Shown here: piece by piece, positions 4,657 to 44,595 of the stretch | Numbering within the stretch: the stretch's first letter is position 1 | Layout: every line of letters starts with the position of its first letter | Source of the DNA: a virus | Taxonomy: Duplodnaviria > Caudoviricetes | Reading direction: 5' to 3' (one strand) | Length of the DNA: 64,000 nucleotides | IMG/VR virus record: IMGVR_UViG_2767802354_000003 | Coordinates: 4,685 to 68,684 of that record | Program-made: the position numbers and the translations under genes | Notes under the pieces: generated by a model | What the model was told of the DNA's origin: nothing | Seen by the model: the letters and a program-made list of their open reading frames with translations, nothing else | The model's database searches: none

Positions 4657-5431
4657 GGGAGAAATCCTTATGAGCCATGTCCTTGTGACGGACCACGGCC
4701 CGCGTGCATTCCTGCCAGTAGCCGCCATAAACCACGCGCTCAGACAAGCGCCCATAAAGGTGCTGCAGCATGGCGTTGGGAACGGGGTGCAGACCAGGGG
4801 CCTCGGCCAGCGGCCGGCTGCCCAGGTAAATGCCGGCGTGATTGGCTACCGGCGAGCGCACGGCCATCAGGATCACGTCACCAGGCTGGATCTGCGCTGC
4901 ATCGGGAATGCGAGAGAAGCCGGCCTGAGCGAACTGCTGCATATAGAGGTCTTGGCACTGGTTCCACCAGTCGTCAGCACGCTCAAAATCCGGCAGCTCG
5001 ATCCCTGCCTCCCGGCGATACCAGTCCCGCACCAGCGTGTAGCAGTCCAGAACCCCATGGAAGAACTGCCTCCCCAGCAGCGGTGCCTGCCAGCCCGTGG
5101 GCGCGAACTGGTGCAGCTCCTCGAACTGACCCTCGCGCACGCTCACAATCACCCAAGGCAGGCCCGTGGCCTCGCAGGATGCGCGGTCGGCCTCGCTGGG
5201 CTGGGCGGGCGCGTCTGGATGGCTATGCACCACGGCCAGGATGCGGCCGGCGTCCTCGGCATCAGCCCAGTCGTCGGGCGCCATGCGGAATTGCTCGGTG
5301 CCCTGCGCCAGATTGACGCAGGGGCGGTAAATCTCTTTACGACCCTGAGCGATCAGCAGGCCGCAGCACTCGCGCGGATACTCAGCCAGGGCGTGCGCCT
5401 TGATGGCGTCTACCGTCTTTTTATGCAGCAT
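4649..5431 (-). CDS. Tail assembly protein K-like (JAB + NlpC/P60)
   Basis: YPRECCGL, VVHSHPD, GVLDCYTL and NHAGIYLG motifs; TGATG coupling to the L-like gene. Confidence 0.93.
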   Translation of the reverse strand: MLHKKTVDAIKAHALAEYPRECCGLLIAQGRKEIYRPCVNLAQGTEQFRMAPDDWADAEDAGRILAVVHSHPDAPAQPSEADRASCEATGLPWVIVSVREGQFEELHQFAPTGWQAPLLGRQFFHGVLDCYTLVRDWYRREAGIELPDFERADDWWNQCQDLYMQQFAQAGFSRIPDAAQIQPGDVILMAVRSPVANHAGIYLGSRPLAEAPGLHPVPNAMLQHLYGRLSERVVYGGYWQECTRAVVRHKDMAHKDFSHE

Positions 5432-26259: not shown

Positions 26260-26511
26260 TCACTCCACCTCCTTGGTTGAGGTGGATGGCTGCGCCAGCT
26301 CAGGCCAAATCTGGGTGTACTGGTCGGGGAACAGATCCCGCCTAGTCACAGTAGTGAGCTTTTCAAGGCTTGCAGCGCAAGCAGCAGGGATCGGGCGCCG
26401 TCCGCTGATCCACTGGGATATCTCGGAAGGGGATTTGCCTAGGGCTCGCGCCAGAGCAGTCGGGCCACCTGCCTCGGTGCTGGCTCGCTTTGCGAATGCT
26501 GCATGTTTCAT
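26260..26511 (-). CDS. cro: Cro-like HTH repressor
   Basis: GGPTALARALGKSPSEISQWISGRRPIP HTH, divergent from cI. Confidence 0.88.
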   Translation of the reverse strand: MKHAAFAKRASTEAGGPTALARALGKSPSEISQWISGRRPIPAACAASLEKLTTVTRRDLFPDQYTQIWPELAQPSTSTKEVE

Positions 26512-26520
26512 TCATAAAAT

Positions 26521-26581
26521 TTAGCATAGCTAATCATAAAAATCAAGCCACGCTAAATTCATTAATTATTAGCATCGCTAA
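26521..26581. promoter_or_regulatory. OR operators and pR
   Basis: TTAGCATAGCTAA (26521-26533), CAAGCCACGCTAA (26544-26556), TTAGCATCGCTAA (26569-26581); - strand TTGATT-N17-TAAATT just upstream of cro. Confidence 0.75.
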
Positions 26582-26582
26582 C

Positions 26583-27341
26583 ATGAAAGAATGGACTACT
26601 GAGGAAGAGGCTGCAAACCTGCGTCGCCTTCTTACCGGCGTTAAGAACAAGGCTCAGTTCGCCAAGGACAATGGAGTTCCAGGCGGTGCGTCCATGCTTT
26701 CCCAACACCAAAGTGGGCATCGCCCCATCAGCTTGGATGCGGCCAAAGCGTATGCAAAAGGGCTGGGTATCGGAATCGGAGAGATTGCACCTCGCTTTGC
26801 AAAGCTGGTGTCTGACGTCTCGGAGCTTGCTCAGCCAGCGCCTTACCCAAGGGGTCACGAGATAGACATGTCAGCGTACAGTGCTGTTCCGATGTATCAC
26901 GCACCTGACGCTGTAATTGTTCCTCTGCTCTCTAACTGCGGCAGCATGGGCCCCGGTTCTGAGTTGCTGGAGTCAGATGTCATTGTGGGTGACTTGGCCC
27001 TATCCCCACACTGGATCAATCAGCAGATCAGGCCCCAGAACCCGCAAGAGCTGCGCTTCATACACGCATATGGCGACAGCATGGCCCCAACATTCACAGA
27101 TGGCGATGTCCTGCTCGTTGACACAGGGCTTAGTGCACGTGACCCCAGTTCACGCGAAGGCGTCTACGTTTTGCGGGCGAATGATCGAACTTTCATCAAG
27201 CGTGTCACCCCCACCTTTGACGGCAAGCTGCAGGTGACCAGCGACAACCCCAGCGCCAAGACTGTACAAACACTGAATGGCGATCATCAAGTGGATGTGG
27301 TTGGTCGGGTGGTGTGGGCCTGGAATGGGAAAAGGCTGTAA
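26583..27341 (+). CDS. cI: CI-like repressor (HTH + S24 peptidase)
   Basis: N-terminal HTH; GDSMAPT..DGDVLLVD, FIKRV and VVGRVV S24 motifs. Confidence 0.93.
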   Translation: MKEWTTEEEAANLRRLLTGVKNKAQFAKDNGVPGGASMLSQHQSGHRPISLDAAKAYAKGLGIGIGEIAPRFAKLVSDVSELAQPAPYPRGHEIDMSAYSAVPMYHAPDAVIVPLLSNCGSMGPGSELLESDVIVGDLALSPHWINQQIRPQNPQELRFIHAYGDSMAPTFTDGDVLLVDTGLSARDPSSREGVYVLRANDRTFIKRVTPTFDGKLQVTSDNPSAKTVQTLNGDHQVDVVGRVVWAWNGKRL

Positions 27342-27379: not shown

Positions 27380-27889
27380 ATGAAAAATAACTGTGCAGCA
27401 TTGCTTCCGGTTATTTTCTACTTCTGCGCCGCCCCCGCCCTGGGCCAGCAAACATGGCAGGCCGACCTCAGCAGCTACGTGGGCCCGGTCGCAAGAGTCG
27501 GGCTTCCTTCAGAAGGCGCCACGAGTCGCTTGGTTTTGATTGCATTTGAATACGCGACACAGTGCAACCCGCTATTTACCTACGTAGAACTGCAAGGCCC
27601 AAAGTTCGGAGTAGCTGAAAAGCAGTCTTCACTGCCTCCATCAAGCATCGGCGGAGCCATCAATGACAAGCGCTACTCAGGCAACTCCGCAGCAATGACG
27701 CTTTATAGCAATGGGATTGAGGTGGGTTTTGCCATGCCTGATGAGATGGCGATGACACTTGCATCCGATCCAATCACCTCGATCTCATTTACAACACCCA
27801 CTGGCAAGGAAATACCGCTTCCAACAGCTGGTCTAAGCAACGCCGCTGCAAAGGCACTAGACGCCTGCACGAAAAAGGTTTTTTTCTAG
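27380..27889 (+). CDS. Exported hypothetical protein (169 aa) in immunity region
   Basis: Signal peptide ending APALG; GAGG RBS; directly downstream of cI. Confidence 0.7.
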   Translation: MKNNCAALLPVIFYFCAAPALGQQTWQADLSSYVGPVARVGLPSEGATSRLVLIAFEYATQCNPLFTYVELQGPKFGVAEKQSSLPPSSIGGAINDKRYSGNSAAMTLYSNGIEVGFAMPDEMAMTLASDPITSISFTTPTGKEIPLPTAGLSNAAAKALDACTKKVFF

Positions 27890-28036: not shown

Positions 28037-28094
28037 TACTAACGAATGAGTTCAGCGGTCGCCGCAGGCGGTCCGCTTGGACGATGGGTTAGGC
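28037..28094 (-). other. Integron attC site (58 bp)
   Basis: - strand: R'' GCCTAAC, CCATC, L'' GTCCAAGC, central hairpin, L' GCTGAAC, TCATTC, R' GTTAGTA; TAA stop of upstream gene lies in R''. Confidence 0.88.
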
Positions 28095-28442
28095 ACGGAG
28101 CTGCTTCCTTGAGAGCAGCCGAACGATTGGCAGAAGTACCCAAACCAGAACTCCAACTAAAAGAAGCTGGGCGAAGCCAATCCATGTTCTACCAGCTGAG
28201 TAGCCTCCACTGAAACCGGCAAAAATGGCTAAAAGCATGAACGCAAACCACCCGATGCCACCAATGATGAGCCGCCCGAGAGCTTGAAGGACAGCATCCG
28301 GCCCCGTGATTTTGGGCTTCAAGACACTAGGTACAGACGTTGGCTTCCACCCCTCGGCGTTCGAAAAGTTTGCGCCACAGTACTCGCACTCCTGCGCCTG
28401 TGCGGCGATCTCCTTTTCACAGTGGGGGCAGTACGCACTCAT
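28089..28442 (-). CDS. Integron cassette gene: zinc-ribbon plus two-TM membrane protein (117 aa)
   Basis: CPHC...CEYC N-terminus, two hydrophobic helices; GTTAGGC core site at 28449-28455 upstream of ATG. Confidence 0.8.
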   Translation of the reverse strand: MSAYCPHCEKEIAAQAQECEYCGANFSNAEGWKPTSVPSVLKPKITGPDAVLQALGRLIIGGIGWFAFMLLAIFAGFSGGYSAGRTWIGFAQLLLVGVLVWVLLPIVRLLSRKQLRA

Positions 28443-28857
28443 GTAGTGGCCTAACTAGATTTAGGAGACATGCGATGTACATGTTTAACTCGCCTAGTAG
28501 TGTATGAGTGCACAACCCGACAGGCAAATTCGCTGTGATTGTGTTTAGAAAAGCCTAAAAATTTTGATCTCAGTCTTTGGTGGATACTGAAGATCAATGT
28601 CCGAAAGACTGCTTCTGGCCGAACTCAGTCGGTCATGAACAGCAGCCTGGTCAGCCACAGCCGGCACAGGCGGTCAGCTCGACCGGAATACGCGCAGACC
28701 TTCCGTGAGCATTCTGCACAGCGCTGCTTTGCCATCACTTGTCGAGGACACAACGTAGAAGCGCTCATTGCTATCTGTAGCCGGCCCGAACTGGCTGTCT
28801 CAAAGCCCGCATCAGCGGGCTTTTTTGCATCTTTGTGATGTGCGCGCATGATCAATA

Positions 28858-28920
28858 GTAGCAGCGCTTCATTTTATATTTAGCAAAGCTATTGCTTATT
28901 TAGTTTAGCAAAGCTACATT
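28858..28920 (+). promoter_or_regulatory. OL operators and pL promoter
   Basis: TTAGCAAAGCTA at 28880 and 28905 plus a degenerate copy at 28858; TTGCTT(28892)-N17-TACATT(28915). Confidence 0.75.
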
Positions 28921-29224
28921 ACATCCATCGCAGCAAAGCGATGGGTGCCAAGTGATCGAGCCAGCACCTCAGGTCCTTAAAAAGCCAGAGATTCAATGCA
29001 CGTCGTGAGACACGCTGCGCCCCGATGACTTACCGGAACGCGCCGCGACTCTGCCGCCCCGAAGCGGTGGATGGTGCTAACCGGCGCAGATAGTGATCTG
29101 CATAAAGCTGCCAGAGCGAAGCGCAAGCCAGTGACAGTGGGAGATATGCGCCGCCACCCGGAGCGCATCCGGGGTTCAAACGAAAGCCTTGCTAGCAGCG
29201 CGTTCGTTTGAGTACAGTGAATCC

Positions 29225-29404
29225 ATGACACGCATAAACACCACCGAAATTTGGGAGCGACACGGCTACAGAGTCGAGCGCATCGAGCAAGTCATGGGCG
29301 CTCCACAGCGCAATATCTATGGCCCTGATGGCGTGCTGCTGATCGAGGACGCTGAGTACACCCAGGAGACAGAAGCGCTGCGCGACCTCGGCTTCATCGA
29401 CTGA
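29225..29404 (+). CDS. First pL gene, hypothetical (59 aa)
   Basis: MTRINTTEIWERHG...LRDLGFID; homologous fragment at 63918-64000. Confidence 0.7.
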   Translation: MTRINTTEIWERHGYRVERIEQVMGAPQRNIYGPDGVLLIEDAEYTQETEALRDLGFID

Positions 29405-29532
29405 CTGCGGCTTCAGCTGCGACAACATGGTGGGGCGTCTATTTTTTCAAGAGCACCGTTTAAGGTCATTTAAAAGCGTACTGTGGGACAAGGCAGTCAA
29501 TCTTGACCAGCCACCTTAGACCGGAGGTCTAT

Positions 29533-29694
29533 TTGTCAGGTAACCCCATTCCCATCTCTACCCCATCTTTTTGGAACACCTTGAAGCTGATGTTTTTTAT
29601 CACTGATGGGCTACCAGCTCCACAGCAACAAGGCAAGCCTCGTGTCCCTAAAGAAAAGAATGAGGAAGAGCAGCAGCAGCAACGCAAACAGTAG
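29533..29694 (+). CDS. Microprotein A1 (53 aa, TTG start)
   Basis: Start 1 nt after the SD hairpin; ungapped similarity to A2. Confidence 0.6.
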   Translation: MSGNPIPISTPSFWNTLKLMFFITDGLPAPQQQGKPRVPKEKNEEEQQQQRKQ

Positions 29695-29749
29695 CGAAAG
29701 AGAGCTACTTTTTAACTCAGGGTTGCGCTACCGCCCTAGCAAGCACACC

Positions 29750-29770
29750 AGCCACCTCCGGGTGGCTTTT
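29750..29770 (+). terminator. GCCACC/GGTGGC-family intrinsic terminator (also 30080, 30954, 31531, 32426)
   Basis: Same 6-7 bp stem with variable loop and T tract, five times in 2.7 kb. Confidence 0.8.
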
Positions 29771-29855
29771 GCTTGCGCCGTTTAAGGTCATTTAAAAGCG
29801 TAATGTGGACGCATGCGAGTCACTTTTGCTTCGCAGCTTTAGACCGGAGGTCTAT

Positions 29856-30035
29856 ATGTTTCCACTCCTTGTGTACCAAAGATATGTCGCGTTTTGGCAT
29901 GACATGTGGTCGATCATCCTTGAGCCCATCTCTGAGCTCCCGCCAAGCCCTTCAAGCTTCGATCAAGAGCCTTCAGCAAAGCCAGAAACGCCACCATCCA
30001 CGCTCGGCCCAGATGCAGCCAACGACAAGCCCTGA
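29856..30035 (+). CDS. Microprotein B1 (59 aa)
   Basis: ATG after SD hairpin; 25/59 identical to B2. Confidence 0.7.
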   Translation: MFPLLVYQRYVAFWHDMWSIILEPISELPPSPSSFDQEPSAKPETPPSTLGPDAANDKP

Positions 30036-30242
30036 TTGACACGTTCACGCCCCAGACTAAGCAGAAAGCCATGATCCTCAGCCACCTTTTCAGGTGGCTT
30101 TTCTTTGAGGAAACTGCTGCGGTTTAAGGCCTATTCGAGCATTGCTGACATGGACTTTGAGACCGCCGTTTAAGGTCATTAAAAAGAGTACCGTGGACTC
30201 ATGTGGCCTATCTTGGACCGCTGCCATAGACCGGAGGTCTAT

Positions 30243-30461
30243 ATGTCTTTCATCGACAAAACTATCTTCAACATCCGCTCCCGGCTTCCCGCCGTGAAAC
30301 AGGAAGTCGATTCCCGGAGCGTGGCGGATGACGACCGAATCTTTCACACGCCATTTCAAACGGATGCACAGCTGCAGGAGGAATCACCTGAGCAGATGCT
30401 GCGCAAAAAAACGAACCGCCTTTTGCTGCAAGCGGTCCTCAACAAAATCTCTGCCGCTTGA
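30243..30461 (+). CDS. Microprotein C (72 aa)
   Basis: ATG after SD hairpin. Confidence 0.65.
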   Translation: MSFIDKTIFNIRSRLPAVKQEVDSRSVADDDRIFHTPFQTDAQLQEESPEQMLRKKTNRLLLQAVLNKISAA

Positions 30462-30485
30462 GCAAGCTTCTGACCGGAGGTCTAT

Positions 30486-30665
30486 ATGTTTTCACTACTT
30501 GGCTACAAACGTCAGTCCGAGTTCTGGCGTGATATGTGGGTGATGCTCCTCGAGCCGATTTCAAAGATTCAACCCATCGAACCCAGTCTCGATTCACCAC
30601 TCGCACCGACGCCAAAAGCCCCACAGCCCAGCTCCGAAACACCTGCTGTCAACGACAAGGCGTGA
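30486..30665 (+). CDS. Microprotein B2 (59 aa; not in ORF track)
   Basis: MFSLLGYKRQSEFWRDMWVMLLEPIS...NDKA; paralog of B1. Confidence 0.7.
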   Translation: MFSLLGYKRQSEFWRDMWVMLLEPISKIQPIEPSLDSPLAPTPKAPQPSSETPAVNDKA

Positions 30666-30724
30666 CAGCACCATACGGAGACGCAGCGAGCCCGTAGCTC
30701 GCGCGTGTCAGTCTGGAGGTCTAT

Positions 30725-30907
30725 ATGTCAGTAAGCCGCATCCCATCTTCATTCCTGAGGGTTTGGAGAACAGTCAGACGAGTCTTCGCCAGAGGCGAGC
30801 CACTCCCCAGTCCACCCAACATCGAACAGTGCGGACCTCCTGAAAAAGACAAGAGGAGGCAAGAGGAGAGGCAATCGCGCATGCGCCATAGCTATCGATA
30901 CTGGTAG
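30725..30907 (+). CDS. Microprotein A2 (60 aa)
   Basis: GGAGGTCTATATG start context; paralog of A1. Confidence 0.6.
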   Translation: MSVSRIPSSFLRVWRTVRRVFARGEPLPSPPNIEQCGPPEKDKRRQEERQSRMRHSYRYW

Positions 30908-31258
30908 CAAGAGTGTTCGACAGCTCCCACGATTACGTGGCTTCATTTTCAACAGCCACCTTCTAAGGTGGCTTTTTTGTGCCCGGAGATCTTGAGATGT
31001 GAGCATTCAGCCAACATGTGCCATACATGCGCCCTCTCCCGCAGGGCTATAGCGGGGCCATCAAGAAAGAGCGCGGCAATGAAAAACTGCAACGTGGGTG
31101 GAGTTGGGTAATCCGCTCTTTTTCTTGATGGTGCCGGGGGTCGGCTCCCCGGCTCTTACAAAGCAAGCCTGAAAGGGCCTGGCTGGAAAACTGCAAGAGG
31201 GTAATCGCACTGGCCACAGGTGCCCATCATGACCACCCCGGGAAAGTAGCGGGGGCTA

Positions 31259-31364
31259 TCTGGCGTGACTGCTCGAGCAAGTACGGCAACTCAGGAATGG
31301 GCCTGGGTTGGCGGCAGTCACGAGCACGGCGCATCCGCGTCGTGGCGACAGTGGTCACGCCAGA
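31259..31364 (+). ncRNA. Putative structured RNA, family X copy 1
   Basis: 15-bp closing stem with G-U pairs plus two internal hairpins; homologous to copies 2 and 3; strand inferred from G-U pairs and operon direction. Confidence 0.6.
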
Positions 31365-31570
31365 GGGTTTAACAACTTTTCTTAACGTAAATAAGCTTCA
31401 GATGTGGTTCGTCGCGGCGAGCGAATGCGACAAAAGCACTCATTGCGCAGCATCAGACGATAGGCTGTGAATTTATTTCAGTAACATCCGCCTTAGGCCC
31501 AGCTATTAGGACGTAGGTGGAGCCTCTTACGCCACCCACAAGGTGGCTTTTTTTGTCCTGAATTCAGGGC

Positions 31571-31682
31571 CATCCGGCGTTACTGCTTGAACAGGCATGC
31601 CCCCAAGAATTTGCCTGGGTCGCCGTCTATTGGGAGCGCGGCGCGGCTTCCGCGTCGTGAGCGACAGCGGTCACGCCAGATG
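31571..31682 (+). ncRNA. Putative structured RNA, family X copy 2
   Basis: CATCCGGCGTTACTGCT/AGCGGTCACGCCAGATG closing stem; 10-bp inner hairpin. Confidence 0.55.
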
Positions 31683-31763
31683 ACGTAGAGCCCGTTTATG
31701 AGCCCACACACATCTTGATTCCGTCACTCTCTTTGGGCAAAATTTGCGTCACGTACCTGTTTT

Positions 31764-31876
31764 GCCGGGCCTGGGGTCACAGACTCCTTTCACTTCCGCA
31801 ACTTGCCCAGGCATGACCAAATAGGTCGCCGGCTTTTTATTCGTGCCCGCAGCAACTGCTTGCGGGCTTTTCTTTT
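31764..31876 (+). ncRNA. Putative sRNA, family Z copy 1
   Basis: GCCGG/CCGGC, GCCTGGG/CCCAGGC, GACC/GGTC three-stem junction plus terminator. Confidence 0.6.
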
Positions 31877-32050
31877 GCCGCCGGCAGTTCAAGCTAAAAA
31901 ACAGGATACACATAGTGGAAAACAGGCCCCCTAGATGCGCACCACCACAGCCGCATGAGTAGACATGGGGCTATCCAGTTTGGTGTAAGACGAGCTCCTA
32001 TTGATCACCCAAAAAGCATCGTGCAGAATTCGACGCCATCTACCTGTTAC

Positions 32051-32163
32051 GCCGGGCCTGGGGTTAACTCCTCCCTCCCTTTCTGACCTCTTCCCCAGGC
32101 ATGGCCCGAAAGGGTCACCGGCTCTTTACTCAAGCCCGCAGCTACCGCTCGCGGGCTTTTTTT
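32051..32163 (+). ncRNA. Putative sRNA, family Z copy 2 (CU-rich anti-SD loop)
   Basis: Same junction; loop CTCCTCCCTCCCTTTCTGACCTCTT; GAAA tetraloop; terminator. Confidence 0.65.
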
Positions 32164-32179
32164 GCCCACAGGAGACCAC

Positions 32180-32236
32180 ATGCACTCAAGTCCAATCACC
32201 ACCCGCACGACAAAACTGCTACTTGCCAAGCAATAG
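32180..32236 (+). pseudogene. Truncated paralog of the 45-aa TM peptide (TGG to TAG)
   Basis: MHSSPITTRTTKLLLAKQ* then ALTGLGL, aligning to MHSTQTTAYNTKLLLAAQWALTGLGL. Confidence 0.6.
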
Positions 32237-32467
32237 GCGCTCACAGGCTTAGGCCTCGCATGTACCTTCCCCCGCAGGGCTATAGCTAGACCACATCAAA
32301 TAGTAAATATGAATTAATTCTTGAACACCAATAGAAAATGTTGACAACATCAGATGTTAGTGAAAGTATTCACCCTAAGTAAGTCTTTGAATGAGCGCTG
32401 CTCGTGTGTGAGTGAAGCCTCTTTAAGCCACCCTCCGCAGGGTGGCTTTTTTTGCACCAAAGTCAGT

Positions 32468-32580
32468 GCCATCCGGTGTGACCACTCGAGCAGGTACGGC
32501 AGTTCAGGAATAGGCCTGGGCGGGCGGCAATTAGGAACGCGGCACTTTGCGTCGTGGCGACAGTGGTCACACCAGATGGC
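32468..32580 (+). ncRNA. Putative structured RNA, family X copy 3
   Basis: 18/19-bp closing stem with compensatory changes relative to copy 1. Confidence 0.6.
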
Positions 32581-32589
32581 AAGTCAGGT

Positions 32590-32850
32590 TTACTTCTTCC
32601 CACCACCGACAAGGTAGACGTTGCCCTCGGCCACGTTATTGAGAAGCTCGCGATACGCATTCACCAAGTGATCGCGGCCAAGCCTGAACTCGGGATCCGT
32701 TCTATCAGGTCCGTCCTGATGCTTAGCATCCAGCTGTGCAGCGCGCAGCTCTCTCGCCGCTTGATGGGCAGTCTCGCGCGGTAGCGCCTTGACGACTGCC
32801 GTCAAGATCATCGACAGCGCAGCAAATGCGCCAGATTCCTCCTGGGTCAT
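32590..32850 (-). CDS. Hypothetical protein (86 aa), antisense insert
   Basis: AGACTGGAGGT RBS context; helical protein. Confidence 0.6.
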   Translation of the reverse strand: MTQEESGAFAALSMILTAVVKALPRETAHQAARELRAAQLDAKHQDGPDRTDPEFRLGRDHLVNAYRELLNNVAEGNVYLVGGGKK

Positions 32851-32887
32851 GAGGCACCTCCAGTCTGATGACCCATTCTAGTTTCCA

Positions 32888-32997
32888 GCCGGGCCTGGGG
32901 TTTATCTCCTCCCTCCCTCTCTGACCCATTCCCCAGGCAGACCCGAAAGGTCACCGGCTCTTTATTCAAGCCCGCAGCAAACGCTCGCGGGCTTTTT
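32888..32997 (+). ncRNA. Putative sRNA, family Z copy 3
   Basis: Same junction; loop ATCTCCTCCCTCCCTCTCTGACC; terminator. Confidence 0.65.
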
Positions 32998-33019
32998 CGT
33001 TACCCACACAGGAGATTCC

Positions 33020-33157
33020 ATGCATTCGACTCAAACCACCGCCTACAACACAAAGCTGCTGCTCGCGGCGCAATGGGCTCTTACCGGCCTCGGCCTGTTC
33101 TGCCTGGTCGGCGCAGCCGTGGTGATCGCACTCACGCCAGAACCCTGGCCCCTCTGA
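33020..33157 (+). CDS. Small single-TM peptide (45 aa; not in ORF track)
   Basis: CAGGAG RBS; WALTGLGLFCLVGAAVVIAL hydrophobic segment. Confidence 0.65.
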   Translation: MHSTQTTAYNTKLLLAAQWALTGLGLFCLVGAAVVIALTPEPWPL

Positions 33158-33190
33158 GCATTCAACCTTGAAAACTGACAGGAGAGACTC

Positions 33191-33388
33191 ATGCTGAAGA
33201 CGATTGTCGACTCCCTGCTGGTCATCGTTGGCGCAATGCTTCTCGCAGCCTGGCTGTCCGCGCCTGATGCCCAAGCCGATGAACCCAAAACCTTCACCCA
33301 AAGCCTGCGCGATGAGTTCGCCTGCCCGGGCATGCATGCCGAGTGGCTGGACGAGAAGACCGTGCAATGCCTGAAAGAGCAACCGTAG
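33191..33388 (+). CDS. Small membrane-anchored/exported protein (CPGM motif)
   Basis: N-terminal hydrophobic helix; CPGM..W.....V.C.KE shared with 33614-33883. Confidence 0.7.
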   Translation: MLKTIVDSLLVIVGAMLLAAWLSAPDAQADEPKTFTQSLRDEFACPGMHAEWLDEKTVQCLKEQP

Positions 33389-33613
33389 ATTGGCCATGAC
33401 ATGACCTTTTTGCAGGAAGTCTTTTCGCTCTTCTTGCACATAAGGATAGAGAATAGGCATTGCAAAATTCATTGCAATAGTTTGTCTTCAGACAGAGCTT
33501 TTGCCTTTCGCTGCGCAGACGTCCATTGGAGGTCATCAACATGCGAGCTCTAAGGCGCCAAAGGGTGCAATAGCGGCCGTTGCGTTCGCATCCATCAACA
33601 TAGACTGAAGCGT

Positions 33614-33883: not shown

Positions 33884-33952
33884 GCTCGAAAATTTAAAAA
33901 TGCAAAAAGCCCACACCTTTACAGATGTGGGCTTTTTTACGCCAAGTAAAAA

Positions 33953-34204
33953 TTACTTGCGTGTGTTGGCTAGAGATACAGAGATAACTCGACCACCCAA
34001 TGACTGATCATTCAGGGAGTCGATCGCTGTCTTTGCTTGGGCAGCAGTGCCCATTTCAACAAAGCCGAAGCCGCGCGATTGACCTGTATTGCGATCCATT
34101 ATGACTTCAGAGGAAATAACATCCCCACAGCTTGAAAAATGTGATTTCAGTGTTTCGCGATCGATGCCATAGCCAAGATTGGAGACGTAGAGATTGCTTT
34201 GCAT
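33953..34204 (-). CDS. RRM (RNP-1) RNA-binding protein, copy 1
   Basis: RNP2 LYVSNL and RNP1 RGFGFVEM. Confidence 0.95.
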   Translation of the reverse strand: MQSNLYVSNLGYGIDRETLKSHFSSCGDVISSEVIMDRNTGQSRGFGFVEMGTAAQAKTAIDSLNDQSLGGRVISVSLANTRK

Positions 34205-34337
34205 ACAGTACCTTCTAAATGAATTTCGCTACTTATTTTTCAGAGCGAAAGATGATTCCCAAGAGAACCACGAGAGTGCTTTGGTGAAGATTAGTCAGTA
34301 GCCAAAGCTTCTACTGAGGGTTGAAAAATGATCCAGC

Positions 34338-34556
34338 TCAATTCAGCTGGTGGCCAAGCACCATGCTCCGGCCTTCAGCCAAAGCATATTTAGAGGCAAG
34401 CGACTCATCAGAAAAATTCGGAATGAACCGAAAAATTCGGTCATAAGTTCCGCGACGAATAGAGACAGCAGCAGTGAATTGACCACTTGCGTCAGTCTGG
34501 GTGAGAGGTGTGACCACGTAGCGGCCAATCTGCTCTGTAGTGTTTTTGTGCAGCAT
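34338..34556 (-). CDS. Conserved small hypothetical protein, copy 1
   Basis: 55/72 identical to 38869-39087. Confidence 0.8.
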   Translation of the reverse strand: MLHKNTTEQIGRYVVTPLTQTDASGQFTAAVSIRRGTYDRIFRFIPNFSDESLASKYALAEGRSMVLGHQLN

Positions 34557-34947
34557 GAAAGCGAACGATCACACGCACGATTGCGCAGACCGTCAAATGA
34601 GATAGGGAAGGCCCGTGCTAAGTGCAGGGGGCAACGCAGATCCGCGAGGATGTTCAGGATCTGGTGGAGTTCGCCTAGAGGGGTGTGACCACCGCGTGCT
34701 TTGCTAGAAGAGCGGCTACCTGCGGCCAAGGGGCGGCATTGGTGTCAGACAGGCGCTGTTGGGGCGAACGGCCTTAACAGCGAGTGAAACCAGTATAGGT
34801 GAACTGAAAGACCTTTGGTTGGAAATCTTCCGTTACCCCGACCTGACGCCCCTCACATCAAAGACTTCAAAAATAAATTGATAGACCACTAAGGATTAAC
34901 CATGTACTGTGGGCCTAGCGTTCGCATATTTATAGAGAGCCTCACCA

Positions 34948-35130
34948 ATGACCAAAACTAAAAAATCAACAGTTCACCATGTCGTGGAGGCCAAGCGATG
35001 GGAGCTCAGTCGCGAAAAAGAGCGCATCACCTACCCTCCTGAACATGCCGGCCCCGTGCAAATGGAATGGCGCAAGCGAGAAAACTACTCCGCCACCGAC
35101 CTCGACTACCGAGGCCGCAGCAAGATTTAG
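34948..35130 (+). CDS. Small basic hypothetical protein, copy 1 (60 aa)
   Basis: 49/60 identical to 39491-39673. Confidence 0.75.
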   Translation: MTKTKKSTVHHVVEAKRWELSREKERITYPPEHAGPVQMEWRKRENYSATDLDYRGRSKI

Positions 35131-35359
35131 AGAGCCTCCACAGAATTGCCTTTGCCCGCCATTGAGCGGGCTTTTTTATGAGTATCACCAGCATGACAAA
35201 CACCACCACTGACAAGCGTTGCGGAAGCTGCGGCGCCCCTCTTCCTAAAGACTTCAAAGAAGAGCAGGGTCAACCACTTCCTTGCGGCCACTAACAGCCA
35301 CAACTTCCCCAACATCAGAGCCCGCCAATCAGCGGGCTTTTTCTATTTCTGGAGTCTCA

Positions 35360-36550
35360 ATGTTCAAGAGCATGACCATTTACCGCCTTGCCAAGAGCTG
35401 GCAAAGCGATCTGCAGGCGCTGAAAAATTCCCTGCAAAAGACGGTGTTTGAAGAGTGCGGCGCGACCCAAGAGCGCTCCGTGGGCTGGGTTCCGCCGCGC
35501 GGCGAGCAGCACGGCCCGCTGGTCGAGTCCGTGGCCGGCCAGTGGGTCATGCGCTTCATGACCGAGGCCAAGGTGCTGCCGGCCAGCGTGCTCAACCGTA
35601 AGGTCAACGAAAAGGCCGAGCACATCGAAAAGACCGAAGGCCGCAAGCCCGGCAAGAAGGAAAAGCGCGAGCTCAAGGACGAGGCCAAGCTGGACCTGTT
35701 ACCCATGGCCTTCACCAAGCAGGGCAGCATGTGGGTCTGGATCGATCCGCAGGCGCGCACCCTGGTGCTCGATACCAGCGCCCAGGGCCGCGCCGACGAG
35801 ATGGTGACGCTGCTGGTCGAAGGCCTGCCCGGCTTTGCCCTGGCCCTGCTGGATACCCAGACCAGCCCACAGGCCGCCATGGCGCACTGGCTGATGACAC
35901 AAGAGCCGCCCGCAGGCTTCACTGCCGACCGCGAGACAGAGCTGAAAGCCGCCGACGAGTCCAAGGCCGTGGTGCGCTACGCACGCCACCCGCTGGATAT
36001 TGATGAAGTCCGCCAGCACATCGAGCACGGCAAGCTACCCACCAAACTGGCCATGACCTGGGACGACCGAGTGAGCTTTGTACTGACCGAAGGCCTGCAG
36101 ATCAAGAACATCACGCTGCTGGATGCTGTCATGGATGGCAACAGCAAGGACGATGGCGGCTTCGATACCGATGTGGCCATTGCCACCGGCGAGCTGTCGC
36201 GCCTGATTCCCGACCTGATCGAAGCATTGGGCGGCGAAGGCCGCACCCGCCTGGGCGACCTGCCCGCCTCGCTTCAGAACGCGCCTGCTGCGAAAACTCT
36301 GCCAGCAAGCACTGCCAGGACCGCGCCCGCCCCGCACTGCGAAGCTGCTGGCGACGGTCGGGACCCGCTCTATGCCGAGGCCGTTGAACTGGTGCGCAAG
36401 GACCAGAAGCCAAGCGTCTCCTATGTGCAGCGCAAGCTGTTGATTGGCTACAACCGGGCCGCCGCCTTGCTGGAGCGCATGCAGGCCGAGGGACTGGTGT
36501 CGCGCATGGATGGCAGCGGCAAGCGCACGCTTTTGACGCCGCCCGCCTAG
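35360..36550 (+). CDS. rdgC: RdgC recombination-associated protein with C-terminal FtsK-gamma-like winged helix
   Basis: SVGWVPPRG, KVLPASV, GKLPTKLAMTW RdgC motifs; C-terminal DPLYAEAV...SVSYVQRKLLIGYNRAAALLERMQAEGLVS. Confidence 0.9.
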   Translation: MFKSMTIYRLAKSWQSDLQALKNSLQKTVFEECGATQERSVGWVPPRGEQHGPLVESVAGQWVMRFMTEAKVLPASVLNRKVNEKAEHIEKTEGRKPGKKEKRELKDEAKLDLLPMAFTKQGSMWVWIDPQARTLVLDTSAQGRADEMVTLLVEGLPGFALALLDTQTSPQAAMAHWLMTQEPPAGFTADRETELKAADESKAVVRYARHPLDIDEVRQHIEHGKLPTKLAMTWDDRVSFVLTEGLQIKNITLLDAVMDGNSKDDGGFDTDVAIATGELSRLIPDLIEALGGEGRTRLGDLPASLQNAPAAKTLPASTARTAPAPHCEAAGDGRDPLYAEAVELVRKDQKPSVSYVQRKLLIGYNRAAALLERMQAEGLVSRMDGSGKRTLLTPPA

Positions 36551-37958: not shown

Positions 37959-38265
37959 GAGCTCCTTGCAGTGAACCCACTGCCTTGCGAATCCAGCTGG
38001 CGTGCCTAAGAGAGCTGACTCCTTAAGAAGGAGCAGGTCAAAACTACCAGCAAACCTTTCCCATAAGGTACTACAACGGACCTACTGATGCCAAGAGATC
38101 CGTTGCCATCCTTCAAGCAGCTGCCCAGCAATGCAAAGAGCTGGCTGGAGGTTCAGCGTCAGGAAGTCAAGAAGCTTGTCTCTTGAGTTGCACTCGCTGA
38201 AAGAGCACAAGACAAAGAAAAAGCCCACGCTTTCCGCGTGGGCCCTTCTTACAGATCGAAGAAGA

Positions 38266-38517
38266 TTACTTGCGTGGACGGGCCAGGGCCACTCCCACAG
38301 CGCGACCGCCCAGCGGTTGGTCGTTCAGCGACTGGATAGCTTTCTGGGCCTGCTCAGGAGTGGCCATTTCAACAAAGCCGAAGCCGCGTGAGCGGCCGGT
38401 TTCGCGGTCGGAAATGACGTCTGCGGAGATCACTTCACCGCAACCGCTGAAATGTGCGCGCAGGGCTTCGCCGTCGATGGAATAGCCGAGATTGGTGACA
38501 TAGAGATTGTTTTGCAT
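38266..38517 (-). CDS. RRM (RNP-1) RNA-binding protein, copy 2
   Basis: LYVTNL and RGFGFVEM; 56/83 identical to copy 1. Confidence 0.95.
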   Translation of the reverse strand: MQNNLYVTNLGYSIDGEALRAHFSGCGEVISADVISDRETGRSRGFGFVEMATPEQAQKAIQSLNDQPLGGRAVGVALARPRK

Positions 38518-38576
38518 TGTGTTCTTTCAAGTGAGCTCATGCATTTCAGCGATGAGCGAATAAGAGGTAGAGCGGG

Positions 38577-38837
38577 TTAGCGACGGCGCTTGAAGGCTGG
38601 TGCCGCGCCAGTGCGAGGAGCAAGATGACGGAAGGTCACTCGCCCCTTGTTCAAATCGTAGGGAGACATTTCAACAGTCACTTTGTCGCCTGCCAGTACG
38701 CGAATACGGTGCTTGCGCATCTTTCCGCCGCTGTAAGCAATGAGCTGATGACCGTTTTCCAGAGTGACACGAAAGCGGGCATCCGGCAGTACTTCATCAA
38801 CGCGACCGGGCATCTCGATTAGTTCTTCTTTAGCCAA
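38577..38837 (-). CDS. infA: Translation initiation factor IF-1
   Basis: [29 protein letters not shown]...[35 protein letters not shown]; TTG start after AGGAG. Confidence 0.95.
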
Positions 38838-38868
38838 AGTGTCTCCTATGAGTAAAAGCAATAAGAAC

Positions 38869-39087
38869 TCAGTTCAGGCGTTGGCTCATCACCATGCTCC
38901 GGCCTTCAGCCAAGGCGTAGTTGGAGGCGAGCGACTCGTTAGAAAACTGAGGGACAAATCGAATGACGCGGTCATAAGCGCCGCGGCGAATGGAAACGGC
39001 AGCCAGGAACTTGCCGCTGGTGCTCGGCTGTGTCAGAGGTGTGACCACGTAGCGGCCAATCTGCTCTGTAATGTTTTTGTGCAGCAT
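38869..39087 (-). CDS. Conserved small hypothetical protein, copy 2
   Basis: Paralog of 34338-34556. Confidence 0.8.
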
Positions 39088-39490
39088 GAAAACGGACGGC
39101 CGCACGCACGATTGCGCAGACCATCAAGTGAGATAGGGAAGGCCCGCTGTGAATTCAGGGGCAACGCAGATCCATAAGGATGTTCAGGATCTGGGGAGTT
39201 CGCCTAGAGGGGAGTGACCACCGCGTGCTTTGCTAGCAGAGCGGCTACCTGCGGCCAAGGGGCGGCAATGGTGTCAGACAGGCACTGTTGGGGCGAACGG
39301 CCTAAACAGCGAGTGGGACCAGTATAGGTGAAGTGAAAGACCTTTGGTTTACAACACGCAGCGCCGACAAGGGAGTGGTGCTTGAGCCAGATCTCCCCCC
39401 TGCTCTTTCTAACAAGAAATCGATAGACCTGCCTGTGGTAACCCTGTACCGTGGGATCAACTGTTCTGCAATCTACTGAGAGTCTTAGCC

Positions 39491-39673
39491 ATGAGTACAA
39501 CTAAAAAACCCGCCGTTCACCATATCGTGGAGGCCAAGCGATGGGAGCTCAGCCGAGAGAAGGAACGCATCACCTATCCCGCCGACCATGCCGGCCCCGT
39601 ACAGATGGACTGGCGCAAGCGCGAGAACTACTCTGCCACCGACCTCAACTATCGAGGCCGAAACAAGGCCTAG
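39491..39673 (+). CDS. Small basic hypothetical protein, copy 2
   Basis: Paralog of 34948-35130. Confidence 0.75.
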   Translation: MSTTKKPAVHHIVEAKRWELSREKERITYPADHAGPVQMDWRKRENYSATDLNYRGRNKA

Positions 39674-39909
39674 AAGCCCTCTAACCAATTGCCATTGCCC
39701 GCCCTTGCGCGGGCTTTTTTATGAACAGCATGGACATGACAGAATCAATACCGCCAAGTGCTGCTGAAGCTGCGGCTCGCCCTTTTTGAAGCCTCAAAGA
39801 GGAGCAAGGTCACCCACCTCCTTGCCGCCACTAACAGGCACATATTTACAAGATCACAGCCCGCCACTGAGCGGGCTTTTCTCATTCTCTGGAGCTGAAA
39901 ATTGTCTCG

Positions 39910-43424: not shown

Positions 43425-44450
43425 CTATGCAATGCCGTCCAGCCGCTCCGCAATTTGGTCGGCGGTCGGGTTGTAATAAGTCATCGCCCGCTTTGGGTCT
43501 GTCCAACCAAAGACCTTGCACAGGTCGAGCACGTGCAGCTTTTGCGCCATCCGCGTTGCGGCGGTGTGGCGAGAATCGTGAAAAGTAAAACCGTCCAGCC
43601 CGGCACGCTGGCGGTTTCTCCTAAAGATCGCATCCAGCACAGATGCATCTATATTGAACACGAATTCATCGTCGTTCCCTCGCAAGGATTCCAAGTTGCG
43701 CAATGCAGCTCTGGTCAAGGGCACATTGCGGCCCATGCCTGTTTTTGTCTGTCCTTTGTGCAGGACGCAAAAATTCTTGCGTACATCCTTCCAACGCAAC
43801 TTAGTCACCTCCCCTGCTCTCATGCCGGTTTGCAGAGCAGCAATGAAGCATCGAGCAGCAATCTGCTTTGCCTTCGTGATGCCACCTGAGCGCGACCACT
43901 CCATCTCCCTAAGCATCTTGCGAATCTCAACCCCTTCAATAATCCTCTCTCGGCTATGGGGTGTAGAGGGCCTGCTCACATCCGTCATTGGATTGCGAGT
44001 AATCCAGTGCCATTCCTTGCGTGCGTACTCCAGAACATTGTTCACCAGCGCCATTTCGCGCAGCACGGTTGAGTCCTTTACGGACTTCCTTCGTGCGTTC
44101 TTCCACTGGATAAGGTCTTGCTCGTCCAGTTCGGCAATGGTTCGCTCACCTGGCCATTTAGGGTGTTTCGTAGTGATTGCCTCAATCCGAATCTGCTCCC
44201 AGCGCCAGCCACGCTTATCAGGCGAGACCTCTTCCTTGTACTTGTTCATGGCGTCATTGAGGGTCTTCGACTCCCCGTGCAACTTGGCGCCAGCCTTGCC
44301 GCCTTTGGCTGCAGCCCTCAGCTCTATAAGCCTGATGCGTCCCCATTCCTGCGCCTCTCGCTGGGTATTGAACGTGGAACTATCTCGCGCTCCGTCAAAC
44401 TCAACCTGTTGACGCCATTTTCCAGATACAGTTTTAGTGGGTTTTCTCAT
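43425..44450 (-). CDS. int: Phage tyrosine integrase
   Basis: TGMRAGE (R), FHDSRH (HxxR) and MTYY catalytic motifs. Confidence 0.95.
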   Translation of the reverse strand: MRKPTKTVSGKWRQQVEFDGARDSSTFNTQREAQEWGRIRLIELRAAAKGGKAGAKLHGESKTLNDAMNKYKEEVSPDKRGWRWEQIRIEAITTKHPKWPGERTIAELDEQDLIQWKNARRKSVKDSTVLREMALVNNVLEYARKEWHWITRNPMTDVSRPSTPHSRERIIEGVEIRKMLREMEWSRSGGITKAKQIAARCFIAALQTGMRAGEVTKLRWKDVRKNFCVLHKGQTKTGMGRNVPLTRAALRNLESLRGNDDEFVFNIDASVLDAIFRRNRQRAGLDGFTFHDSRHTAATRMAQKLHVLDLCKVFGWTDPKRAMTYYNPTADQIAERLDGIA

Positions 44451-44541
44451 TGCTGCGGGGTGCAAAAATTGGGCGAAATTGGGCGCTGAGTGTGTGCAAA
44501 AGGTGTTTTTTGCTGCAACCCTGCGCCTACCCCGGATAGCA

Positions 44542-44554
44542 TAAGTCTTTGATT
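44542..44554 (-). promoter_or_regulatory. IHF consensus site in att arm
   Basis: AATCAA-AGAC-TTA matches WATCAANNNNTTR. Confidence 0.6.
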
Positions 44555-44595
44555 TATTTAAAAAAGTGCAGCTATTGCACAATCTTGAAACCCTG

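Follow-up and report, generated by a model that had tools for sequence, protein, structure and literature searches.

A tandem array of microprotein genes with a shared, promoter-like head in the early-left arm of a lambdoid Comamonas provirus

The 64,000-nucleotide stretch analysed here (the window) spans positions 4,685 to 68,684 of IMG/VR record IMGVR_UViG_2767802354_000003, a provirus of 68.7 kb with a lambdoid layout. In its early-left arm, downstream of a CI-type repressor gene, lies an array of five microprotein genes, m1–m5, distributed over three short units (m1, m2 and m3-m4-m5), each of which begins with the same promoter-like box and leader and ends in an intrinsic terminator. By its sequence, the window belongs to a lambdoid provirus of a Comamonas host, because a degenerate pattern of the box matched the genomes of C. 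testosteroni, C. thiooxydans, C. aquatilis and C. guangdongensis and those of no other genus. A preliminary description of the array had read its repeats as the signals of a regulon; the comparisons reported here indicate that they are the regulatory head of a single gene family, copied together with its genes.

All five genes lie on the plus strand. Unit 1 contains m1 (53 amino acids, TTG start, 29533–29694), unit 2 contains m2 (59 amino acids, 29856–30035) and unit 3 contains m3 (72 amino acids, 30243–30461), m4 (59 amino acids, open reading frame 30486–30665) and m5 (60 amino acids, open reading frame 30725–30907). The five frames are open and of similar length in orthologues from other Comamonas prophages and species, and the ratio of nonsynonymous to synonymous substitution rates (dN/dS; Nei–Gojobori method) is 0.03–0.5 in every comparison with dS above 0.1, with values of 0.03–0.24 for m1 and 0.20–0.46 for m2. 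On this comparative evidence, the five small open reading frames are real genes. Four of them, m1, m2, m4 and m5, can be aligned with one another, m4 being a paralogue of m2; they share a Pro-x-Pro motif and a nearly invariant Trp14, which does not vary at all among the 15 members of alignment A2. Judged by this alignment, they are paralogues of one Comamonas-restricted microprotein family, referred to here as the Trp14 family, the members of which are built from an N-terminal helix around Trp14, the Pro-x-Pro motif and a charged or proline-rich tail. The product of m3 represents a second family that is not related to the first (hhalign probability of 0.2%); as the first gene of the m3-m4-m5 unit, m3 is an operon partner of the family genes.

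Searches of Pfam and PHROG with m1–m5 returned no matches, an IMG/VR search with m3 found near-identical relatives only, and m5 matched only unnamed clusters in the ESM Atlas (scores of 0.82–0.84). The AlphaFold models are of low confidence and non-globular, consisting of isolated helices only (residues 8–22 and 40–58 in m5, and 3–12 and 49–71 in m3). An ESM Atlas lead suggesting a likeness of m3 to region 4 of sigma-70 was sub-threshold (0.85), and was rejected in view of the model of this protein, which has two isolated helices, no helix–turn–helix and a mean predicted local distance difference test score of 67. In a collection of 5.8 billion proteins, the Trp14 family forms 47 clusters, of which those bearing names are all hypothetical and none carries a Pfam domain. 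The annotation of this previously unnamed family is thus hypothetical only, and no paper on small proteins in Comamonas prophages was found in the literature.

Each unit begins with the 21-mer CCGTTTAAGGTCATTWAAAAG (29456, 29778 and 30166, plus strand; 0 copies expected by chance), of which no further copies with up to three mismatches occur in the window. Two nucleotides past it lies a −10-like hexamer (TACTGT at 29479–29484, TAATGT at 29801–29806 and TACCGT at 30189–30194), and the complete promoter-like boxes extend over 29456–29488 in unit 1 (CCGTTTAAGGTCATTTAAAAGCG-TACTGT-GGGA), 29778–29810 in unit 2 and 30166–30198 in unit 3. A hairpin containing the Shine–Dalgarno (SD) sequence, TAGACC-GGA-GGTCTA, follows at 29517–29531, 29840–29854 and 30227–30241, respectively 40, 41 and 40 nt past the 21-mer, and is separated by a single nucleotide from the start codons TTG (29533), ATG (29856) and ATG (30243). 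The units are closed by intrinsic terminators of the form AGCCACC-N4–6-GGTGGCT followed by a T-run, located at 29750–29771 (stem 29750–29767), 30080–30103 (stem 30080–30099) and 30954–30978 (stem 30954–30973). All of these elements are found where the preliminary description had placed them, including the spacing of the hairpin and its position one nucleotide before the start.

Other parts of that description require modification. The TTTAA-N6-TTAAA dyad that it had assigned to all three units is perfect in units 1 and 2 only, unit 3 reading TTTAA-N6-TAAAA, and its left arm is not conserved in diverged copies. Two more genes, at 30471 and 30711, had been said to carry the hairpin alone. What they carry instead is the SD/start box GGAGGTCTATWTG, which includes the start codon and is present in exactly five copies without mismatches, all contiguous and within 1.2 kb (at up to two mismatches there are eight matches, compared with 1.28 expected). 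Before m4 this box occupies 30476–30488 and overlaps a weak hairpin with a 4-bp stem (30472–30482; −3.7 kcal/mol), and before m5 it occupies 30715–30727, where the 5′ hairpin arm is absent and no hairpin is formed (0 kcal/mol, compared with −6 kcal/mol for the full hairpin). The partial copy reported before 37066 does share GACCGGAG within GACCGGAGACTTAATG, but nothing more of the hairpin, and the resemblance is weak.

The significance of the box becomes apparent from a set of 36 distinct leaders from many species. In all of those scored as promoter-proximal, a TAnnnT hexamer lies 47–50 nt (usually 48 nt) before the start codon; directly in front of it is the A-rich element TTWAAARG-N-G, and AGG is found further upstream. 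Within the hexamer, T1, A2 and T6 never vary, and these are the letters that matter most in a −10 element. The box of unit 2 begins only 11 nt past the terminator stem of unit 1, and therefore there is no space for another promoter. When the window is compared with a C. aquatilis element (L029), the 29-nt box differs at three positions, and the SD hairpin and start box at none, for a dS of approximately 1.0 in m3 and m4. As far as these patterns go, the box is probably a promoter, one that is likely to require an additional factor: it would combine the invariant TAnnnT, the A-rich TTWAAARG-N-G directly upstream and AGG at about −27, with no −35 element, and would start transcription approximately 7 nt downstream of the hexamer. 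Sigma-54, ECF-type, sigma-28 and sigma-32 promoters were considered as models for the box and rejected, as none fitted by eye; the GC of the sigma-54 −12 element is not conserved (C/A).

The same region bears on a different interpretation, put forward in the preliminary description, in which the dyad is an operator for a dimeric regulator (CI, CII or a host factor) and the SD repeat a translation signal, the whole forming a regulon of the kind seen with the start-associated sequences of mycobacteriophages. Conservation over the 20 nt that precede the hexamer is far higher than at synonymous sites, the lack of a −35 element makes a sequence-specific factor plausible, and the 5+5 dyad of units 1 and 2 is perfect. 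However, its arms comprise just 5 bp, all A/T, and the right arm is broken in unit 3 and in many relatives. In diverged copies the left arm TTTAA is swapped for CTTCAAGG, ATTTAGGG, TGGAAGG, CCTAGGAG or ATTGAGGA, and what these copies retain is the right A-rich part with G-N-GTAnnnT, that is, AGG...TTAAAAAG-N-GTAnnnT, so that a dyad is not what is preserved. Together with the occurrence of the module outside prophages and with the lack of the defining features of start-associated sequences, both discussed below, this makes an operator-based regulon unlikely. An anti-CRISPR-type operon with an Aca autorepressor was also considered and rejected: neither Pfam nor PHROG detects a helix–turn–helix in m1–m5, the m3 model has two isolated helices and the dyad is not conserved.

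Folding of the aligned leaders with RNAalifold revealed two hairpins. The first, SL1, spans 29492–29512 in unit 1 (GGC-AGUCA-loop-UGAC-GCC), 29814–29835 in unit 2 and 30203–30221 in unit 3, and begins approximately 7 nt past the hexamer, within about 0–2 nt of the predicted 5′ end. All seven of its pairs vary among the 36 leaders, six of them through compensatory changes on both sides; 86% of the SL1 cells are paired, compared with 26–44% when the partners are slid, and the covariation score exceeds those of all 500 shuffles. There is thus good evidence, of a comparative kind, that the leader region is transcribed and that the structure of SL1 is under selection. Some hairpins at the 5′ terminus are known to protect mRNAs from 5′-end-dependent decay, and a transcript with its 5′ end at the foot of SL1 could use this element as a 5′-terminal stabiliser.

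The second hairpin, SL2, is the SD hairpin (UAGACC-GGA-GGUCUA, −6 kcal/mol), which folds at 29517–29531 and 29840–29854 in units 1 and 2 and extends to 7 bp in unit 3 (30226–30242). Of its cells, 97.8% are paired, with 13 G·U-compatible cells against four to five unpaired ones (for example UGGACC, AGGACU and UAGGCC...GGUCUG), and one copy is shifted to a 5-bp stem with a 4-nt loop. A role at the RNA level is favoured because these variants break the DNA palindrome yet preserve the RNA stem, a pattern that points to SL2 acting as an RNA element. Following SL1 after a linker of 5–6 nt, SL2 carries the GGA of a strong SD sequence (GGAGGU, 5-nt spacer) in its loop, whereas its 3′ arm contains the spacer and the remainder of the SD sequence. 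With a stability of −6 kcal/mol, SL2 would be expected to make the access of ribosomes to the gene that heads a unit weaker or conditional without blocking it. In m4 and m5, the downstream genes in this prophage group, the SD/start box is kept with a weak hairpin or none. A search of the whole window against Rfam gave nothing at the gathering threshold, and between 28.8 and 33.7 kb only chance-level matches at E below 1.

Since SL2, with its 15 nt and GGA triloop, is more conserved than the proteins that it precedes, distant species included, it might be a translational operator through which a trans-acting RNA-binding protein gates the whole family. The candidates would be the RNA recognition motif (RRM) proteins of the prophage itself, which carries two such genes, and the RNA-compatible variation of SL2 accords with a reader of this type. 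Homologues of these proteins lie 1–3 kb from family genes in L061, L070 and L073, one pair being only ~50% identical to that in the window. On the other hand, the linkage may be mere inherited prophage synteny, another open reading frame lies between the two genes in L073, and no RRM gene is present in the examined DNA of the chromosomal copy described below or of several arrays (L019, L027, L040, L043 and L080). Single-domain RRMs, moreover, usually bind single-stranded RNA. CsrA is the protein classically associated with hairpins that have GGA in the loop, but searches for PF02599 in three Comamonas host genomes and in the provirus gave no match while detecting the positive controls, and CsrA/RsmA was rejected as a reader of SL2 on this ground. 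We therefore give gating by the RRM proteins only a small probability. If it were true, a prophage-borne factor would control the whole family post-transcriptionally, including the chromosomal paralogue of the host. The two paralogous RRM_1 genes, each encoding 83 amino acids, are located at 33953–34204 and 38266–38517 on the minus strand (E values of 1e-21 to 2e-24), within a duplicated segment of approximately 1.3 kb with ~80% identity (33949–35300 and 38262–39842).

The distribution of the module bears on the choice between a regulon and a duplicated family. Of 77 genomes representing Comamonas species, 25 contain the Trp14 family; of 201 sampled from the taxonomic family as a whole, two do. 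A search of five Comamonas genomes that allowed three mismatches in the box turned up additional sites outside the array, each followed by the same leader and a family member, and in three complete genomes the core box occurs at family loci only, apart from one or two weak two-mismatch matches. In all genomes searched, therefore, the box and leader precede only members of the Trp14 family or their operon partner m3, a restriction established by sequence matching. Since the module is confined in this way, a gene duplicated along with its regulatory region accounts for the sharing. The motif search that the preliminary description had proposed in related prophages and in the host chromosome thus did find the module in both, but solely at these genes, and the regulon that it had postulated gives way to common descent. 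The units do look self-contained and co-regulated, with a conserved promoter-like box and an RNA-like SD hairpin; they do not, however, form a regulon of unrelated genes.

One family locus is chromosomal. A single m5-type gene (MPDSRIPPPIQKFWETTKELFS...RMRHNYRYW) with box and leader is found in Comamonas chromosomes (L041, L042, L044, L059, L060, L063 and L080) in conserved synteny upstream of an SDR dehydrogenase gene, across species and with flank identities of 74–93%. EamA-transporter and GGDEF genes lie beyond the SDR gene in L080, the one 18-kb locus examined, and in one genome insertion sequences and a DNA methylase gene are present on the other side. This copy lies outside any recognisable prophage, and phage CI or CII are therefore unlikely readers of the module, contrary to the earlier proposal of control by phage factors.

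The arrays themselves are variable. Related prophages contain one, two or three units with differing gene orders: L018 and L030 have unit 1 only, L029 has only the m3-m4-m5 unit, on a short contig, L027 has an m1-like gene and m2 fused into one unit, and L040 has m2-like and m5-like genes. To judge from these arrangements, the variation follows the pattern that unequal recombination between the repeated heads and terminators would give, in agreement with the cassette-like shuffling suggested previously, which is the only element of the earlier inference to receive direct support from the comparisons. An exact 18-mer search of IMG/VR returned 17 matches, about half of them by chance in AT-rich contigs, and a blastn search of the array region against a phage collection gave no match. 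In more distant Comamonas (L046, L065, L067, L070 and L073), a further box, AAGTAAGTCTTTG(TG), lies approximately 20 nt upstream of the promoter box of the family genes; its single copy in the window, at 32377–32389, is not at the array.

Tandem small genes, each with a promoter-like box, an SD-occluding leader and a terminator, are also what would be expected of type I toxin–antitoxin loci, in which small toxic peptides are paired with antisense RNAs, as in ldr/rdl and ibs/sib of Escherichia coli. A terminator-like hairpin with a T7 run is indeed present on the minus strand inside m3 (30413–30438). However, the residues of m3 that encode it are not conserved in L028, L068 and L071, so that the hairpin is probably coincidental, and no antisense promoter or conserved antisense element was found. 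No hydrophobic stretch long enough to span a membrane occurs in m1–m5, the N-terminal helix of which contains charged residues and the tails of which are rich in proline or charge. The single chromosomal copy, syntenic and under purifying selection, behaves like an ordinary gene. A toxin–antitoxin nature of the array is accordingly very improbable.

The position of the array raises the question of whether its units are transcribed from their own boxes or from further upstream. In the window, the gene for the CI-type S24 repressor lies at 26490–27341 on the plus strand, and small plus-strand genes follow as far as the integrase gene (43425–44582), with an RdgC-FtsK-gamma gene at 35282–36550; the minus strand carries the TerL gene and a CII-type (CP76) gene. 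Two direct copies of TTAGCAAAGCTA, each with an internal TAGC-N3-GCTA dyad, are found at 28880–28891 and 28905–28916, just past a terminator at ~28800–28825, and overlap a promoter-like TTGCTT-17 nt-TACATT. From its sequence, this site (28880–28921) is likely to be a pL-type early-left promoter with repressor operators.

This pL-like promoter lies approximately 550 nt upstream of the array, and antiterminated polymerase starting at ~28.9 kb could read the units, the box then being an RNA signal for processing, antitermination or stability. Terminator-like sites on the plus strand between the pL-like promoter and 41 kb are about twice as frequent as in shuffled sequence (40 compared with 20), which is typical of antitermination-controlled operons, and RNA contigs bridge the unit borders. 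Nevertheless, chromosomal or solitary copies (L041, L043, L059 and others) keep the box without an upstream phage operon, the invariant T1, A2 and T6 follow the −10 pattern at a fixed distance before a 5′-terminal stem-loop, and no Rfam family matches the region. Exclusive reading of the units from pL with the box as an RNA signal thus appears quite improbable.

The RNA data consist of assembled Logan contigs, which cannot give starts, strand, level or depth ranking and in which DNA carry-over is possible. In three independent studies of a related lysogen, the RNA libraries yielded contigs that extend over the entire array (29335–31364), which is compatible with expression from the prophage. 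Two of the studies have a contig start at 29335–29339 in common; since a second homologous element of that genome falls at the same place, this start is taken for a break in the assembly instead of a 5′ end. The literature was found to contain no map of transcription starts for C. testosteroni. In one library (X5), the contig word depth is 41,000–88,000 over ~28985–29134, compared with ~1,100 over the array, and a sequencing adapter directly follows 29134. This suggests that a very abundant short RNA derives from the leader of the early-left operon in the related lysogen; the segment has no Rfam match and its fold is no better than those of shuffled sequences (z = −0.3).

The reading that we consider probable is that the array consists of three self-contained, moron-like units in the early-left arm of a lambdoid Comamonas prophage, the head of which is the regulatory region of the family itself, copied by duplication and kept by selection. 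Each unit comprises one to three microprotein genes, and its strong terminator would insulate it from pL read-through and from its neighbours. Several observations weigh against this reading. No match to a −35 element was found at the boxes, and a scan with the sigma-70 consensus flagged none of these sites. The box is conserved well past the needs of a minimal promoter, and is probably read by an activator, a repressor or an alternative sigma factor. Promoter activity and start sites are deduced from sequence patterns, the RNA contigs being unable to show starts. As regards translation, the SD/start box is invariant in m5 of the C. testosteroni group despite the loss of the 5′ arm, and hairpin pairing is therefore not the sole constraint on it. 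The mean hairpin energy is −5.5 kcal/mol for first genes and −4.2 kcal/mol for downstream genes, but the hairpin of L064 is broken at two pairs and some downstream genes elsewhere retain a full hairpin, so that first and downstream genes tend to differ in this respect but do not do so invariably.

The preliminary description is therefore partly supported, in that the observation is real and was carefully made but its interpretation overreaches. The array embodies no new regulatory principle: its shared motifs are explained by the duplication of one gene family, and it is ordinary in kind and lineage-specific. Its interest is twofold. It defines a previously unnamed microprotein family, restricted to Comamonas, the genes of which have multiplied in the early regions of prophages and one member of which is conserved on the chromosome. 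It also offers a natural case in which the regulatory head, made up of promoter box, stabiliser-type stem-loop and SD hairpin, is conserved far beyond the coding sequences that it serves. Two questions suit this system well: by what means temperate phages express and insulate their small accessory genes, and whether the phage paralogues interfere with or mimic the host microprotein.

Other parts of the early-left region deserve mention. Between the CI gene and the early-left promoter lie a plus-strand gene (27380–27889) for a 169-amino-acid protein with an N-terminal signal-like sequence and a minus-strand gene (28089–28442) for a 117-amino-acid zinc-ribbon protein, read as membrane-associated; both are candidates for accessory genes of the exclusion type that would be expressed in the lysogen. 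Downstream of the array, 31000–33500 contains few open reading frames, repeated plus-strand terminators (a 52-nt repeat present three times) and four copies of the 24-nt box CGTGGCGACAGTGGTCACGCCAGA, and its sequence suggests a series of units that are non-coding or very small. One of these, at ~32340–32455, resembles a small-RNA unit, with a TTGACA-type promoter-like site and a strong terminator, and contains the single copy of AAGTAAGTCTTTG mentioned above.

Among known systems, the start-associated sequences (SAS) of cluster K mycobacteriophages were the analogy originally proposed. SAS are 13-bp asymmetric repeats (GGGATAGGAGCCC) located 3–7 bp before start codons; 11–19 copies are dispersed over the non-structural half of the genome, before many unrelated families, and they are essentially absent from the host (PMC3203893). 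The associated extended SAS (ESAS) are 17-bp imperfect inverted repeats with a 4–13-bp spacer, directly upstream of SAS, whose variation gives no support for RNA pairing (PMC3203893). The likeness consists of an SD-containing repeat immediately before non-structural starts and of an upstream element with some symmetry. In contrast to SAS, however, the repeat described here is GGAGGTCTATWTG, with the start codon included and only the SD core in common; its five contiguous copies within 1.2 kb precede four paralogues and the operon partner m3; and box, leader and family gene are present at a syntenic chromosomal locus in several Comamonas species. Unlike ESAS, the upstream box has no conserved dyad, and no inverted repeat is robust except the 6-bp SD hairpin, the variation of which is G·U-compatible. 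The analogy thus fails on sequence, on dispersal before unrelated families, on absence from the host and on the non-RNA nature of the inverted repeats.

As to the leader, 5′-terminal stabiliser stem-loops and SD-occluding hairpins, such as those of the ompA leader and of RNA thermometers, form the natural class for comparison. SL1 resembles the former in lying near the predicted 5′ end and in conserving structure rather than sequence, and SL2 the latter in that the SD sequence is divided between its loop and its 3′ arm and its stability is modest (−6 kcal/mol), although the sequence of SL2 resembles neither ROSE nor fourU. The ldr/rdl and ibs/sib loci likewise consist of tandem small-ORF units, each with a promoter, an SD-sequestering leader and a terminator; the products of m1–m5 differ in not being hydrophobic membrane peptides, and there is no evident gene for an antisense RNA.

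Morons are independent transcription units carried in prophages (PMC3594210). The array resembles them in that one or more small accessory genes are bracketed by a promoter-like element and an intrinsic terminator of their own among the early genes of a temperate phage. Three strong intrinsic terminators (29750, 30080 and 30954) are present, and the number and content of the units differ between related Comamonas prophages. A promoter of their own is suggested by the TAnnnT at a fixed distance, by the box 11 nt past a terminator and by solitary copies that keep the box, yet it would lack a −35 element; the cover of 29335–31364 by lysogen RNA-library contigs, which carry neither strand nor level, is compatible with expression from the prophage. 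The array differs from a typical moron in being a set of tandem paralogues under one highly conserved head instead of a single foreign insert, and in belonging to a family with a syntenic chromosomal member. With its own promoter and prophage expression predicted from these features, the phage moron is the known system that fits the array best.

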